The notes under the pieces were generated by a model. It worked only from the letters and a program-made list of their open reading frames with translations, made no database searches and was not told where the DNA came from. From a virus (Duplodnaviria > Heunggongvirae > Uroviricota > Caudoviricetes), in the IMG/VR virus record IMGVR_UViG_2859805564_000008: a stretch of 53,551 nucleotides of DNA; one strand, given 5' to 3'. The position numbers and the translations under genes were made by a program. Shown here piece after piece: positions 5,424 through 17,010 of this stretch (the stretch's first letter is position 1; each line of letters opens with the position of its first letter).

Positions 5424-6039
5424 TTTGCTGCTCCTCATCATATCGACCCTGCAAGGTCGGTTAGTTTCTCCACAAAACAGAGAAGAACACCTGCGGTGGC
5501 AGCCGCCCGGATGGATTGGGTTATGAGCCCGTCGTCCGGTGATGCTCTTCTCTGTTTTGTAAAAAGAGCGGTACCAGCCGGAAGCAAGTGTACAAACTGG
5601 TACCGCCAAAGCAGTGGCTGTTGTGGTGACCGGTGCTGATCTCCGGCTTGCGGTTATTTCAGACTCTCACGGGCGTTTAATTGCCCCGCCGAACAGCTCT
5701 TTTCCGCAATAGCTGCAATGTCTTTCGCGCATCAGTCTGCGCATTCACCACAACGCTGAGAGCACTTAGCCAGTTACGGCACCACACTTTGTCGCGGTTC
5801 CATAAATGCCCTCATCGTTGCACCCTGGTCTCTTCCCAGGCGTCAAACCGAATCGCCACGCTGGTTAGGCGTCTTATCAGCATCATCATTGACTTGCACA
5901 TTCCGGCTACCTGGTTTGTTTGCTCGAGCAAGGAGTGGATTGTCCCCTTTAACGTCACCAGACCGCTAACGACGCATGTGCCATACGCCGTGTTACAACC
6001 AAATTTTGTTTTAATCTTGCCTGTGTTATGTTTCTTTTA

Positions 6040-8958: not shown

Positions 8959-9449
8959 TCATGAGTCTTTTGAATGACGTTCAGAAATTCATTGAAGCCC
9001 ATCCGGGCTGTACTTCCGGAGACATTGCGGATGCTTTTGCAGGTTACTCACGGCAGCGCGTTCTGCAGTCAGCAAGCAAGTTACGTCAGAGTGGGCGTGT
9101 GGCTCACCGTTGTGAAGGAGATACACACAGACATTTCCCGCGCCTGACTGAGAGAGCGCAGGATCCGGAACCACAACCAGTTCGTGAAACCAGACCTGTG
9201 CGCAATTTCTATGTCGGCACTAACGACCCGCGGGTGATTTTGTGCCTGACCCGCCAGGCGGAAGAACTGGAGTCCAGGGGCTTATACCGTCGAGCTGCAA
9301 CGGTGTGGATGGAGGCATTCCGTGAAAGCCACTCCCAGCCAGAACGAAACAATTTTCTGGCGCGTCGTGAGCAGTGTTTACGGAAAAGCAGCAAGCGCGC
9401 TGTATCGGGTGATGAGTGGTATCTGTCAGGGAATTACGTGGGGGCGTAA
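8955..9449 (+). CDS. PerC-like transcriptional regulator domain protein (putative)
   Basis: 164 aa; C-terminal GLYRRAATVWMEAF...RREQCLRK resembles PerC family; overlaps the neighbouring stop/start codons. Confidence 0.4.
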   Translation: MIMSLLNDVQKFIEAHPGCTSGDIADAFAGYSRQRVLQSASKLRQSGRVAHRCEGDTHRHFPRLTERAQDPEPQPVRETRPVRNFYVGTNDPRVILCLTRQAEELESRGLYRRAATVWMEAFRESHSQPERNNFLARREQCLRKSSKRAVSGDEWYLSGNYVGA

Positions 9450-9775
9450 TGACGACGTTAACTCAATGCCAGCAGCAGGTGCTGGATATGCTGATTTCTT
9501 ATCAGAAAGAGCGTGGCTTTCCGCCAACCAATCAGGAGGTGGCAACCATGCTGGGATACCGTTCAGTGAATGCAGCGGTAGAGCATCTTCGCGCACTGGA
9601 GAAAAAAGGCGTCATCACGATAAAGCGTGGCGTGGCCCGGGGGATAACGCTTCATACCGCGGTGAAGGACGACGACAGCGAGGCGGTCGGGATTATCCGC
9701 GCACTGCTTGCCGGTGAGGAAAACGCAAGGCTGCGTGCAACCCACTGGTTACATGAGAGGGGCCTGAAAGTATGA
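9449..9775 (+). CDS. LexA DNA-binding-domain-like protein (no peptidase domain)
   Basis: MTTLTQCQQQVLDMLISYQKERGFPPTNQEVATMLGYRSVNAAVEHLRALEKKGVITI resembles the LexA N-terminal winged helix. Confidence 0.6.
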   Translation: MTTLTQCQQQVLDMLISYQKERGFPPTNQEVATMLGYRSVNAAVEHLRALEKKGVITIKRGVARGITLHTAVKDDDSEAVGIIRALLAGEENARLRATHWLHERGLKV

Positions 9776-11990: not shown

Positions 11991-12356
11991 GTGATGCGTG
12001 ATATTCAGATGGTTCTGGATCGTTGGGGAGCATGGGCGGCGAGTGATAGTTCAGGAGTAGATTATTCTCCTATAGCTGCTGGGTTTAAAGGGCTTCTTCC
12101 CTATACAAGCAAAACACGTCAGGCTTGTTCAGATAGTGATGCATTAATTATTGAAGGTTGTCTTGCACGTCTAAAGCAAAAAAGACCTGATGAGCATTCG
12201 CTTCTTGTGGCACATTATTTATACAGAATATCCAAGCGTAAGATTGCAAAGGCGCGTGGAAAGGATGAGAAACTAATACGCATTGAGATACAGATGGCTG
12301 AGGGGTTTATTGATGGATGCCTTTCAATTCTGGATATTAAACTTGAAATGGATTAG
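11991..12356 (+). CDS. late-gene antiterminator Q-like protein
   Basis: 121-aa ORF at the end of the nin region, just upstream of the late promoter/terminator region. Confidence 0.55.
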   Translation: MMRDIQMVLDRWGAWAASDSSGVDYSPIAAGFKGLLPYTSKTRQACSDSDALIIEGCLARLKQKRPDEHSLLVAHYLYRISKRKIAKARGKDEKLIRIEIQMAEGFIDGCLSILDIKLEMD

Positions 12357-12361
12357 TGAAA

Positions 12362-12379
12362 CCCCGGCTTAAGCCGGGG
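12362..12379. terminator. palindromic hairpin between convergent Q and NYN genes
   Basis: CCCCGGCTT-AAGCCGGGG perfect dyad overlapping the NYN stop codon; weak U-tracts. Confidence 0.4.
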
Positions 12380-13232
12380 ATGTTTCAGATTGAAGTGTTT
12401 TTTTCTTGGGCTCGTTCTTAGATGATTTTGTTTTCTTTTGACGATTGAGTTTTTTCTCTTTGCGTCTGTCAATATAATCGTCCCACCAATCAGGTTTTAC
12501 TGTTGGGACGATTCTGCAAATATCAGCAATTGCAACAACAATGTTGCTCGATTGCACTCCATCGACGTGCTCTGCCAGTGAGGGAGGAACTTGTTGGTTC
12601 ATTGGATCGAGGATAAAATCCACACCCTTTATACGGGCATGTTTAGCGGCAGGAACGAAATCAGCATCGCCAGCAATCAGGACGATCACATCAACTAGTT
12701 TCTCATGAGCAAGGATAGTTATATCCATACCAAGCTTAATATCGACGGCTTTTTGTTTATATTCGTAGTAGAAATCGTCGTTAGTTAACTCAGACCATTG
12801 AATTTCATTACGTAATAGTTTCTTAAGAGTATGTTCTTTTATTTGCCAGTTACCGACGTTTGAAAGAATACCCATACGAAGTGCCGTTTTACGATTCTTC
12901 CTTAGCTCCTCATGAAGCTTGTTTCGTAAAACATTCGGAGCATGTGTCTTGAAGTTTTTAGTTGATGGGGTTTTGTTGTCTCCATCAGGCAAAGGATACT
13001 TAATCTGTTTATCAAGCGGCGGGCAGTCGTAATAGTAAATACGGTAAAGCTCAAGTGGTTCACGGTCAGCGTGAGCACCATGTGGAACCTCTACATGAAA
13101 TTTAACAATTCGCCAGATTATTTTAACAAGTTGTTGGCTGTCTAACTCATGCCCAGGGAAATGTTTTCGTAGAAAGTAATCAATCCGACGGATGAAGTAG
13201 CCGCCGTCAATCAAGACTGCTGTTTTCTTCAT
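12369..13232 (-). CDS. NYN-domain (PIN-like/LabA-like) putative ribonuclease with Lys-rich C-terminal tail
   Basis: MKKTAVLIDGGYF ... VLIAGDADFVP acidic-residue pattern of NYN domains; C-terminal KKLNRQKKTKSSKNEPKKK; ATG at 13232, track GTG at 13244. Confidence 0.65.
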   Translation of the reverse strand: MKKTAVLIDGGYFIRRIDYFLRKHFPGHELDSQQLVKIIWRIVKFHVEVPHGAHADREPLELYRIYYYDCPPLDKQIKYPLPDGDNKTPSTKNFKTHAPNVLRNKLHEELRKNRKTALRMGILSNVGNWQIKEHTLKKLLRNEIQWSELTNDDFYYEYKQKAVDIKLGMDITILAHEKLVDVIVLIAGDADFVPAAKHARIKGVDFILDPMNQQVPPSLAEHVDGVQSSNIVVAIADICRIVPTVKPDWWDDYIDRRKEKKLNRQKKTKSSKNEPKKKTLQSETSPA

Positions 13233-13244
13233 TGAAAAACTCAC

Positions 13245-13303
13245 AAAAAAAGCTCAGAACCGTTGAGTAGACCCTAAATATTATCTACGAACAGTGCTGA
13301 GCT
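13245..13303 (-). terminator. leader hairpin plus U-tract immediately upstream of the NYN start
   Basis: Minus-strand hairpin (7-bp outer stem AGCTCAG/CTGAGCT, inner GTAGA/TCTAC) followed by U6-7 that abuts the start codon. Confidence 0.4.
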
Positions 13304-13311
13304 GGTGACGC

Positions 13312-13345
13312 AATAATTAACTATTGACATTTGCGTTGTCAACAA
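13312..13345 (-). promoter_or_regulatory. candidate sigma70 promoter driving the NYN gene
   Basis: Minus strand TTGACA - 17 bp - TAATTA, ending ~10 nt before the leader hairpin. Confidence 0.4.
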
Positions 13346-13430
13346 ATTTTGCACTGTTTAAATGTAAATTTTTTCTGCTGTCAACATATAGTGTCATCTT
13401 TGGTATGTTGACACTATATAAACGCTTACG
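13320..13430 (+). promoter_or_regulatory. candidate late promoter region (pR'-like) with repeated TTGACA/TGTCAA motifs
   Basis: Several TTGACA/TGTCAACA motifs and an A/T-rich -10-like TATATAAA between Q and the tR'-like terminator; exact promoter not resolved. Confidence 0.3.
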
Positions 13431-13485
13431 CGGTCCGCAAAAATAATTGTATCATGTTAAGAGTGGTTACTTCGACTCCTTCCTT

Positions 13486-13510
13486 AAAACCGCAGTTGAG
13501 CGGTTTTTTT
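13486..13510 (+). terminator. tR'-like intrinsic terminator
   Basis: AAAACCGC-AGTTGA-GCGGTTTTTTT hairpin with U-run. Confidence 0.65.
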
Positions 13511-13608
13511 GTACCTGTAAACCTGGTGCAGTACAGTAAACACGCTGGTGGTCGTGAATACTGGCTTTTTATCTTGCTGGCTTTTTAGACAAGAGTTATT
13601 GGTATGTC

Positions 13609-16401: not shown

Positions 16402-16695
16402 TTATTGTGAGCAATACACCCGTGCTTCCAGCGGAGTATAAATGCCTAAAGTAATAAAACCGAGCAATCCATTTACGAATGTTTGCTGGGTTTCTGTTTT
16501 AACCACATTTTCTGCGCCGCCACAAATTTTGGCTGCATCAACAGTTTTCTCCTGTCCAATTCCCGAAACGAAGAAATGATGGGTGATGGTTTCCTTTGGT
16601 GTTACTGCTGTCGGTTTGTTTCCAACAGTAAACGTCTGTTGAGCACATCCTGTAATAAGCATTGCCAGAGCGGCAGAAAATAACATTTTTTTCAT
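16402..16695 (-). CDS. bor: Bor lipoprotein (serum-resistance-associated)
   Basis: MKKMLFSAALAMLITGCAQQ lipobox; lambda Bor-like; track ORF extends to 16743. Confidence 0.85.
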   Translation of the reverse strand: MKKMLFSAALAMLITGCAQQTFTVGNKPTAVTPKETITHHFFVSGIGQEKTVDAAKICGGAENVVKTETQQTFVNGLLGFITLGIYTPLEARVYCSQ

Positions 16696-17010
16696 CTTAT
16701 TATCCTGCATTGTTAAAAACGGCAGAATCCTATGTGACAACAATTAAACGATAGTTAAATGGATTGATGAAAATTAAAACTATATAGGTGTACGGTCAGA
16801 CTATTGGAGGTAGTCAGGATTTGAATGTCAGTCTGTTGTCGGCATTCTGGCAATGCAATTTGGATAAAGCGGGGATTAAAAAGATAGAGGCGAGCCGGTC
16901 AGGTAGAAATGAATCAGGCTCAAAGTGAAGCGGAAAAGGTCTGTGGCACAAACTGATGCTGCCATAATTACAGCCTGATGACTTGTGGAATGAAACATGT
17001 TGAACCTCCT

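Follow-up and report, generated by a model that had tools for sequence, protein, structure and literature searches.

Results

A reverse gene fills the slot between Q and the candidate late promoter

The window analysed here, a 53,551-nt stretch of viral DNA taken at its full length, carries a minus-strand gene that is convergent with the late-gene antiterminator gene Q and lies before the candidate late promoter pR' (Table 1). An earlier note on this DNA had described an 864-bp gene in this position and orientation, and the open reading frame was confirmed. Homology to cdtI ran through Q up to exactly position 12356 and resumed at 13429, while homology to SfV restarted at 13487, at the terminator annotated in SfV. 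The borders of the slot were accordingly set at 12356 and about 13429. Its content differed in relatives: two reverse genes in cdtI (one DUF6731), a reverse gene of 148 aa in PhiR40_1, a reverse gene of 339 aa in strain E21845 and a forward gene of 205 aa with a weak WYL match in strain E47. These cargos were all unrelated to the gene in the window. In strain SY033 the slot was empty, so that the conserved region lay within ∼70 bp after Q. The proposal that the gene is an insertion in the Q-to-late-promoter slot is borne out by this comparison, and the Q–pR' gap of SfV/e14-like prophages is a cargo hotspot worth mining. GC content was 37–44% in the region from Q to pR', cassette included, as compared with 55–59% in the early genes before Q and ∼50% downstream.

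Table 1. Features of the Q–pR' region, with positions in the window.
Feature	Position	Strand	Support
Q, antiterminator of the late genes, 121 aa; forms the left border of the slot	11991..12356	+	PF06530, E=1.1e-51
Perfect, GC-rich palindrome CCCCGGCTTAAGCCGGGG where the convergent Q and NYN genes meet	12362..12379	.	
NYN-domain protein, predicted metal-dependent endoribonuclease, with basic C-terminal tail (residues 251–287)	12369..13232	-	
U-tract directly 3' of the leader hairpin, followed by GUGAG (weak Shine-Dalgarno) and, 12 nt on, the ATG	13245..13250	-	
Conserved 5'-leader stem-loop (outer, middle and inner helix, conserved loop) with the shape of an intrinsic terminator	13251..13303	-	
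Predicted sigma-70-type promoter of the NYN cassette	13313..13342	-	Consensus scan, 10/12 matches
Palindrome TTGACA-N7-TGTCAA over the -35 element and spacer of the NYN promoter	13325..13343	.	
Further TGTCAACA copies (13379–13386; inverted, 13406–13413) between the NYN promoter and pR'	13379..13419	.	
Right border of the slot and candidate late promoter pR'	13429..13455	+	Six-phage alignment
Conserved initial transcribed region and tR'-like intrinsic terminator	13456..13512	+	Six phages, SfV alignment

The convergent genes meet at the perfect palindrome CCCCGGCTTAAGCCGGGG, which begins 5 nt past the Q stop codon and contains the stop codon of the NYN gene (12369–12371), in agreement with the earlier description of a palindromic hairpin shared with Q. 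Its predicted folding energies on the two strands were -17.2 and -17.9 kcal/mol (z = -4.8 and -3.5), and it belongs to the cargo side of the junction, not to the Q flank. As the U-tracts on either side are short, the palindrome is probably a bidirectional 3' hairpin or a weak terminator.

At the right border, CGCGGTCCGC (13429–13438) was found exactly in the window, E21845 and cdtI, and as a one-base variant, TGCGGTCCGC, in SY033, which has the same Q type. It was missing from E47 and PhiR40_1, which carry different Q alleles, and is a candidate Q-binding element. The hexamer TATCAT (13450–13455) is a candidate -10 element of pR'; five of the six phages have a TAnnnT hexamer next to the conserved transcribed region, and the sixth, SY033, has CAGTAT there. 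Across the six phages the right flank was near-invariant, starting with TGTTAAGAGTGGTTACTTCG (13455) and including a hairpin and its T-run (13486–13512). The stem of this tR'-like terminator (13486–13493/13500–13507, repeat I11) and its T-run align with the terminator annotated in SfV, and would be the target for read-through by Q-modified polymerase. We infer from the alignments that these right-flank elements correspond to pR', a candidate Q-binding element and tR'. An Rfam search of the pR' region returned only weak matches to STnc130 and isrK, below threshold.

The gene encodes an NYN-domain protein with a complete set of catalytic aspartates

With its stop codon the ORF measures 864 bp, and translation from the ATG gives 287 aa. 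An alternative GTG start at 13244 would add 4 aa; the ATG is favoured because the N-terminus of the family is MKKTA. The ORF is not accidental, the same or near-same copies and the exact Q–NYN arrangement being found in 27 of 5,426 complete Escherichia coli genomes. In three of the 27 carriers an IS1 element interrupts the ORF.

NYN (PF01936) was the sole Pfam family matched by the protein (residues 105–208, E=1.4e-9, 39.1 bits against a cutoff of 24.2). The product was assigned to PHROG 5783, a family of unknown function (E=7.6e-109), and is labelled 'NYN domain-containing protein' in RefSeq. A search of 5.8 billion proteins yielded 3,236 relatives. The best 120 of these came from Enterobacterales, Pseudomonas, Pasteurella, Halomonas and others; nearly all were single-domain proteins of 220–300 aa, and all except two short fragments (P0094 and P0110) contained PF01936.

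Eight aspartates (D9, D69, D164, D170, D189, D191, D205 and D224) were invariant in an alignment of 24 members sharing 41–86% identity. The active-site set (D9, D164, D170, D189 and D191) is complete, with D189 and D191 forming the GDxDF motif, and the protein has the three-layer alpha/beta/alpha PIN-like fold. The NYN/PIN-like domain proposed in the earlier note thus stands, as does its Lys-rich tail, since residues 251–287 hold 10 lysines and 3 arginines among 37 residues. A lack of conserved acidic catalytic residues had been named there as an observation that would speak against the proposal; given the eight aspartates invariant in 24 members, this objection falls away. As an NYN-fold protein with the complete catalytic Asp set, the product is predicted to be a metal-dependent ribonuclease.

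The closest known family comprises the NYN/LabA-like PIN nucleases (PF01936; MARF1 NYN domain, 5yaa/6fdl; Vibrio VPA0982, 2qip). Compared with these, the protein has ∼100 extra residues in the form of insertions, plus a basic helix and tail at the C-terminus; it is also carried by a prophage and preceded by a dedicated structured leader RNA. A 2017 survey of the PIN superfamily listed a bacterial LabA-like NYN group without demonstrated nuclease function. A profile search of PDB sequences with the NYN protein gave no match, and matches in NCBIfam were limited to weak or generic NYN ones. No model of PADLOC-DB v2 rose above noise; the partial matches to HEC-09 (E=4.5e-4) and NYN (E=4.9e-4) each spanned ∼47 residues.

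The NYN gene has a conserved predicted promoter and a conserved, covarying leader RNA

The predicted promoter reads, on the minus strand, as a -35 element TTGACA (13342–13337), an 18-nt spacer and a -10 element TAATTA/AATTAT (13319–13313). Transcription from it would be expected to begin near 13306, at the foot of the leader hairpin and within a nucleotide of the start at ∼13305 suggested earlier. A TTGAC(A/G/T)-17-TAnnnT promoter at an equal distance from the hairpin was present in 18 further homologous loci. The -35 palindrome looks like an operator; similar TTGAC-N5-7-GTCAA palindromes occur in the Edwardsiella, ev099, Yersinia and Tatumella loci. All three matches to TGTCAACA in the window are confined to 77 bp near the NYN promoter, and a perfect 11-nt inverted repeat (13386–13396/13409–13419) lies beside the copies listed in Table 1 (repeats D1, I4 and I9). 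Inspection by eye upstream of the NYN gene revealed no LexA box (CTGT-N8-ACAG), and TRF found no tandem repeat between 12300 and 13700.

The leader hairpin indicated in the earlier note is formed by an inverted repeat (I3, 13251–13264/13290–13303) and has a minimum free energy of -24.1 kcal/mol (z = -2.6). When the upstream DNA of five loci was aligned, the ∼80 nt before the ATG were more conserved than the coding sequence. The shared pattern consisted of TTGAC(A/G)-17-TAnnnT and, ∼8 nt after the -10 element, a three-part hairpin with a U-run, followed by 10–20 nt and the ATG.

A covariance model of this leader (type 1; model R1), which scores 98.3 bits on the hairpin in the window, located it immediately 5' of the gene at 19 loci from genomes or phages, among them loci of Pseudomonas, Acinetobacter, Pasteurella and one Chromatiaceae MAG. 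The U-run followed the stem in all 19 aligned leaders, and the promoter was kept at an equal distance from the leader in 19 of 19 loci. In the type-1 alignment (A8), 89.7% of pair cells were paired, as compared with 22–39% in slid controls; compensatory changes were seen at 13 of the 19 pairs, and none of 500 shuffles matched the observed score.

Distant relatives (40–46% identity, ∼210 aa) from Beta- and Gammaproteobacteria, Acidobacteria, Bacteroidota, Clostridia and Lentisphaerae are preceded by a second leader of similar design (type 2), GCCCYUGG-CAGUA(A/C)GC-stem-loop-GCCGA(N)C-CCARGGGC plus a U-run. Its covariance model (R2) found it 5' of the gene in 50 genome loci, while the only match elsewhere in 1.04 Mb was weak and at chance level (19 bits, E ∼0.05). 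Here 92.9% of cells were paired, 13 of 14 pairs showed compensatory changes and, again, 0 of 500 shuffles matched the observed score. The conserved AGUA/GA(A) internal loop of this leader may resemble a sarcin-ricin or loop-E module, a common protein-binding site.

In IMG/VR, relatives are encoded on 506 viral contigs, of which 80 were examined for a leader. The R1 leader preceded 63 of 64 close relatives, the exception being cut at its 5' end, and the R2 leader preceded all 16 distant ones. Overall, 79 of the 80 viral loci and ∼70 of the 85 loci from genomes and phages had the leader hairpin 5' of the gene, across several phyla, which amounts to a hairpin with a U-tract before the ATG in about 150 loci. 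Not only the helices but also the unpaired sequence of the loop and internal loops is conserved across phyla. Neither leader type matched a family in Rfam 15 (window and locus L053 searched at E<=10, 11 loci at the gathering score), and no description of the leader was found in the searchable literature. On these comparisons it is a candidate new structured RNA class.

Several other identities were considered for the hairpin. The paper on the prophage sRNA svsR (PMC12803456) deals with the 3' end of cI and has no bearing on this leader. A riboswitch was judged unlikely: the aptamer-like hairpin is itself the terminator, is very stable and has no alternative fold. No antiterminator fold was visible in the leader, as the predicted transcript begins at the hairpin base and leaves nothing for such a fold. 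A mere terminator of cI was rejected because cI and the hairpin are separated by the conserved promoter, and also because the hairpin is present with the gene at loci that lack an upstream gene (the window, Edwardsiella and chromosomal loci).

Promoter, leader and ORF travel as one cassette

The NYN gene is a self-contained cassette as judged from its predicted signals, with a promoter, a hairpin of ∼55 nt and U-run, ∼12 nt, the ATG, the ORF and a 3' hairpin, and promoter, RNA and ORF are conserved as one unit across phyla. Homologues with 59–86% identity occupy very different sites. The gene lies just downstream of cI, on the same strand, in ev099, 2B8, Proteus phage Brookers and a Brenneria prophage, as well as in 48 O121-type Stx2a phages. 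In Edwardsiella (86% identity) it lies on the opposite strand between a Q of a different family (PF03589) and a holin gene. In Cronobacter and Pseudomonas syringae, homologues are found at prophage ends beside gtrABC or an integrase-side gene, and many chromosomal homologues sit amid housekeeping genes. Among the viral contigs, S24 cI-type repressors made up 28 of 49 distinct upstream neighbours, which indicates that the position downstream of cI is the usual phage site and that the Q–pR' site of the window is a minority location. Neither this usual home nor the wide conservation and covariation of the leader RNA featured in the earlier note.

The unit shared between loci is narrowly delimited. 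Phage ev099 and an O121 Stx2a phage have in common only a 1.13-kb promoter-leader-ORF-terminator block (97.9% identity) within unrelated flanks, and the window and Edwardsiella share 12433–13475 at 78% identity. No conserved protein partner emerged: around 19 genome loci, 152 Pfam families were found, each in at most three of the neighbouring proteins scanned. Morons are extra prophage-borne gene units with their own transcription signals. The site in the window is empty or otherwise filled in relatives, and the gene has a promoter and a terminator of its own, as predicted from sequence. By these marks the locus is a horizontally mobile moron cassette, with predicted signals, in an SfV/e14-like lambdoid prophage, and it lies antisense to rightward phage transcription.

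The RNA element also occurs without an intact ORF

When viral contigs were scanned for the pattern of the class-2 core, about as many matches were obtained as were roughly estimated by chance, so only those confirmed by the covariance model were used. After this R2 filter, 26 motif-positive loci remained. In 14 of these an NYN ORF lay 7–38 nt downstream of the motif (111 nt for one partial match), and in about 9 the promoter and motif were present without an NYN ORF. The orphan motifs were located after endolysin, Abi_2 or Ltp genes or near integrase genes, in Firmicutes-type prophages. In one orphan (L236) the promoter and RNA are the same as in an ORF-bearing locus (L192). In the Stx1 phage AU5Stx1, the cassette downstream of cI retains the promoter, the leader and the first 31 codons, with ∼645 bp deleted within the ORF. 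The orphans, this deletion and the IS1 insertions indicate that the RNA element can occur without an intact NYN gene and that the ORF has been lost repeatedly. Since the motif is not exclusive to NYN genes, it could be a general terminator or insulator element of moron cassettes.

Discussion

The arrangement described above is consistent with a lysogen-expressed RNase that is held in check by its leader RNA and serves as a toxin or phage-exclusion effector, a reading to which we give an even chance. In the lysogen, the cassette promoter would drive the NYN gene without recourse to phage late transcription; the antisense position of the gene with respect to read-through from the early operon fits a lysogen-expressed gene. 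The leader hairpin and U-tract would stop most transcripts just before the ribosome-binding site, giving a low level of RNase and an abundant RNA of ∼60 nt. The conserved unpaired nucleotides of the leader may be a recognition site for the NYN protein: sequence conserved at unpaired positions calls for a specific binder, and the NYN protein is the only conserved candidate. The leader would then act as an autoregulatory attenuator or cleavage site, or else as an inhibitory RNA, the autoregulatory version being somewhat more likely. The RNase itself may be a toxin, an abortive-infection effector or an exclusion effector against infecting phages, and once the prophage is induced, the gene would be silenced by early-operon transcripts that run through Q and are antisense to it.

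Exclusion, abortive infection or toxicity had all been suggested in the earlier note. These roles are supported circumstantially, by the lysogen-typical positions of the gene (after cI, between Q and pR', and at prophage ends) and by the lack of a conserved protein partner. Several observations weigh against a controlled effector of this kind. No PADLOC defence model scored above noise, and the hairpin is very stable, with no visible antiterminator fold to relieve termination. The RNA motif is shared with loci that have no ORF, and the many chromosomal homologues amid housekeeping genes would also fit a role in cellular RNA processing. [quoted passage not shown] In the tests of Payne et al. 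(2024, preprint), HEC-09 failed to protect against any of the phages used.

The layout of the cassette invites comparison with type III toxin–antitoxin and Abi systems. In ToxIN the order is promoter, structured RNA, intrinsic terminator and endoRNase ORF. The cassette shows the same order as ToxIN, AbiQ and CptIN (promoter, structured non-coding RNA, Rho-independent terminator, endoribonuclease ORF) and is likewise a single-protein system on mobile elements. In type III systems an intrinsic terminator separates the RNA from the toxin ORF, and the cassette has a terminator-like U-tract hairpin 12 nt before the ATG. Unlike those systems, the cassette has one leader hairpin in place of tandem RNA repeats, and its protein has the NYN fold, not that of ToxN/AbiQ. 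Membership of type III thus fails on two defining features (tandem repeats and a ToxN-family toxin), although the layout is comparable.

An RNA-antitoxin system following type III logic is, for this cassette, a doubtful alternative, if the best placed of those considered. Here the terminated leader RNA would bind and neutralize the NYN RNase, phage shut-off of host transcription or RNA decay would free the toxin and cause abortive infection, and the promoter-plus-RNA copies lacking an ORF would be orphan antitoxins or decoys. Besides the match to the ToxIN layout, this explanation draws on the RNA being the only conserved partner of the gene, on the conserved unpaired loop sequence, on the orphan promoter-plus-RNA units in phages (L236 beside L192, and AU5Stx1) and on the removal of the ORF by IS1 or deletion in some carriers. 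It is weakened by the single hairpin, in which TRF detected no tandem repeats, and by the fold being NYN and not ToxN/AbiQ. The orphans can also be accounted for by simple decay, AU5Stx1 being a clear internal deletion. A bolder form of this idea, in which the NYN RNase and the leader RNA would constitute a new class of RNA-controlled toxin or abortive-infection system with type III-like logic and both parts unrelated, the leader serving as an inhibitor or specificity mimic and the orphans as decoys, seems to us unlikely. If true, such an RNA-controlled class would span bacterial phyla and be carried by temperate phages mainly downstream of cI.

A feedback-regulated enzyme without any part in phage conflict is a rather unlikely alternative. 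RNases often autoregulate through stem-loops in their own mRNA, and Regnase-1 (ZC3H12A), a PIN/NYN-like RNase, recognizes stem-loops that include one in its own mRNA for feedback. Regnase-1 serves as an analogy only, being eukaryotic, acting through a 3'UTR element and a zinc finger, and having no terminator function. On this explanation, specific RNAs of the cell or the phage would be trimmed or turned over by the protein, a LabA-like NYN RNase; the leader would be a feedback site like those of the rnc, rne and Regnase-1 mRNAs, and the phages would carry the enzyme as ordinary accessory cargo. The frequent setting of homologues amid housekeeping genes, the common use of own-mRNA stem-loops for RNase autoregulation and the absence of a defence-model match all fit. 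The strong enrichment in lysogen-typical sites (after cI, the Q–pR' slot and prophage ends), the presence of the family on 506 viral contigs and its patchiness within a species (27 of 5,426 E. coli genomes) do not.

It is very unlikely that the hairpin is a mere insulating terminator or 5' stabilizer of a gene that works to the phage's own benefit, for instance by breaking down the RNA of host or competitors once the prophage is induced, or by adjusting the choice between lysis and lysogeny: the hairpin and U-run do have a textbook terminator shape, would terminate cI transcripts as well at cI-adjacent sites and recur after Abi_2, Ltp and endolysin genes in Firmicutes-type phages, but loop and internal-loop sequence is kept across phyla, unlike that of ordinary terminators, the conserved promoter between the upstream gene and the hairpin places the hairpin inside the NYN transcript, and the antisense orientation speaks against expression during lytic growth.

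Our preferred reading, a lysogen-expressed RNase checked by its leader RNA, offers in the NYN–leader pairing a concrete proposal of how an RNase with toxic potential could be silenced; if the leader does control the RNase, RNA-based toxin control extends beyond the ToxN family. In a literature search on NYN proteins combined with prophage defence, rexAB, type III TA and structured RNA, whose reach excluded most subscription papers, the family was undescribed. The enzyme fold is known and the family annotated, yet the latter appears to be uncharacterized in the searchable literature, where the RNA–protein pairing also appears undescribed. We rate the cassette, from its predicted parts, as a PIN-like RNase moron with a dedicated and widely conserved RNA partner.

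The lambdoid slots downstream of cI and Q house rexAB, Shiga toxin and other lysogenic-conversion genes. In those slots the single-gene RNase cassette is widespread, being found on 506 viral contigs, in genomes of at least 579 species and in 48 O121-type Stx2a phages. Like lambda rexAB, it most often lies directly downstream of cI, and like bor/iss, which are reversed after Rz, the gene in the window is reversed, in this case after Q. It shares with rexAB, bor and other lysogen-expressed morons a predicted promoter and terminator of its own. It has no sequence or fold relationship to rexAB or bor, and its product is a predicted RNase, not a membrane or sensor pair.

Cargo between Q and the late promoter

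Comparison of the interval between the late antiterminator gene Q and the candidate late promoter pR′ (12357-13428 in the window) with the corresponding regions of cdtI (L005), PhiR40_1 (L006), SY033 (L007), E21845 (L008) and E47 (L009) revealed that its cargo is hypervariable across SfV/e14-like prophages. At least five alternative contents were found, as well as an empty state, and the cargo genes were mostly in reverse orientation. One of these contents pairs a DUF6731 gene with a gene of 147 aa; others consist of a gene of 148, 339 or 205 aa, the last with a weak WYL match.

Sequence elements at the promoters

The sequence CGCGGTCCGC, a candidate Q-binding element, is exactly conserved in three phages (the window, E21845 and cdtI), and a one-base variant, TGCGGTCCGC, is present in SY033, which has the Q type of the window. 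Phages that carry another 121-aa Q allele lack CGCGGTCCGC. A cluster of repeats lies between pR′ and the NYN promoter; the octamer TGTCAACA occurs three times in the 53.5-kb window, with all three copies in a 77-bp stretch of this region. Among them, a TTGACA-N7-TGTCAA palindrome covers the NYN -35 element. The TGTCAACA cluster, this palindrome and a perfect 11-nt inverted repeat look like putative operators.

Features of the window discussed in this section
Feature	Position	Strand	Remarks
119-aa protein gene	9416-9775	+	annotated 'LexA family transcriptional regulator'
Repeat cluster with TGTCAACA copies	13325-13419		
Perfect 11-nt inverted repeat	13386-13396 / 13409-13419		
CGCGGTCCGC	13429-13438		a short way upstream of the candidate -10 hexamer of pR′
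Winged-helix protein gene, 72 aa	13609-13827	+	PHROG 331; weak matches to TrmB and DprA_WH
iss/bor-type lipoprotein gene	16402-16743	-	immediately after the Rz gene

Loss of the NYN ORF and leaders without it

An IS1 element was found inside the NYN ORF in three of the 27 cassette-bearing E. coli genomes (NZ_CP024257.1, locus L183, and the genome matches H79 and H80), where the interruption costs the ORF its N-terminal part, including the predicted active-site residue D9. The Stx1 phage AU5Stx1 (L282, 2422-2911), in which the cassette lies downstream of cI, is missing ∼645 bp inside the ORF. Its promoter and leader RNA are still 98.8% intact despite this deletion, and the cassette is a decayed 'orphan leader'.

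High-scoring motifs of the class-2 leader, the second sequence class of NYN leader RNA, were also found with an upstream promoter and no NYN ORF in nine IMG/VR contigs (L184, L190, L193, L195, L218, L223, L225, L236 and L261). Either the motif follows a gene for an endolysin (Amidase_3), Abi_2 or Ltp, or an integrase or RelA_SpoT gene is nearby. Leaders of the Firmicutes type have an additional small hairpin between promoter and motif.

Neighbouring short-RNA and moron genes

In Paraburkholderia adhaesiva (L059), Rfam matches to isrK (51.4 bits) and C4 antisense RNA (60.4 bits) at 5635-5832 on the minus strand lie immediately upstream of the NYN cassette and divergent from it. Here too, the cassette and a region of phage regulatory short RNAs stand back-to-back. 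In the window's own pR′ leader, the isrK match reached only 12.7 bits.

The late region that holds the NYN cassette has a second classical moron, the iss/bor-type gene, for which the matching RefSeq locus L001 gives the annotation 'increased serum survival lipoprotein Iss'. The winged-helix gene is the first after the terminator-like hairpin tR′, and in many phages it is conserved ahead of a DNA methyltransferase gene. The 'LexA family' gene is part of the early operon, upstream of RusA; its product, which is distinct from the main S24 repressor of the prophage, appears from its length to lack a peptidase domain.
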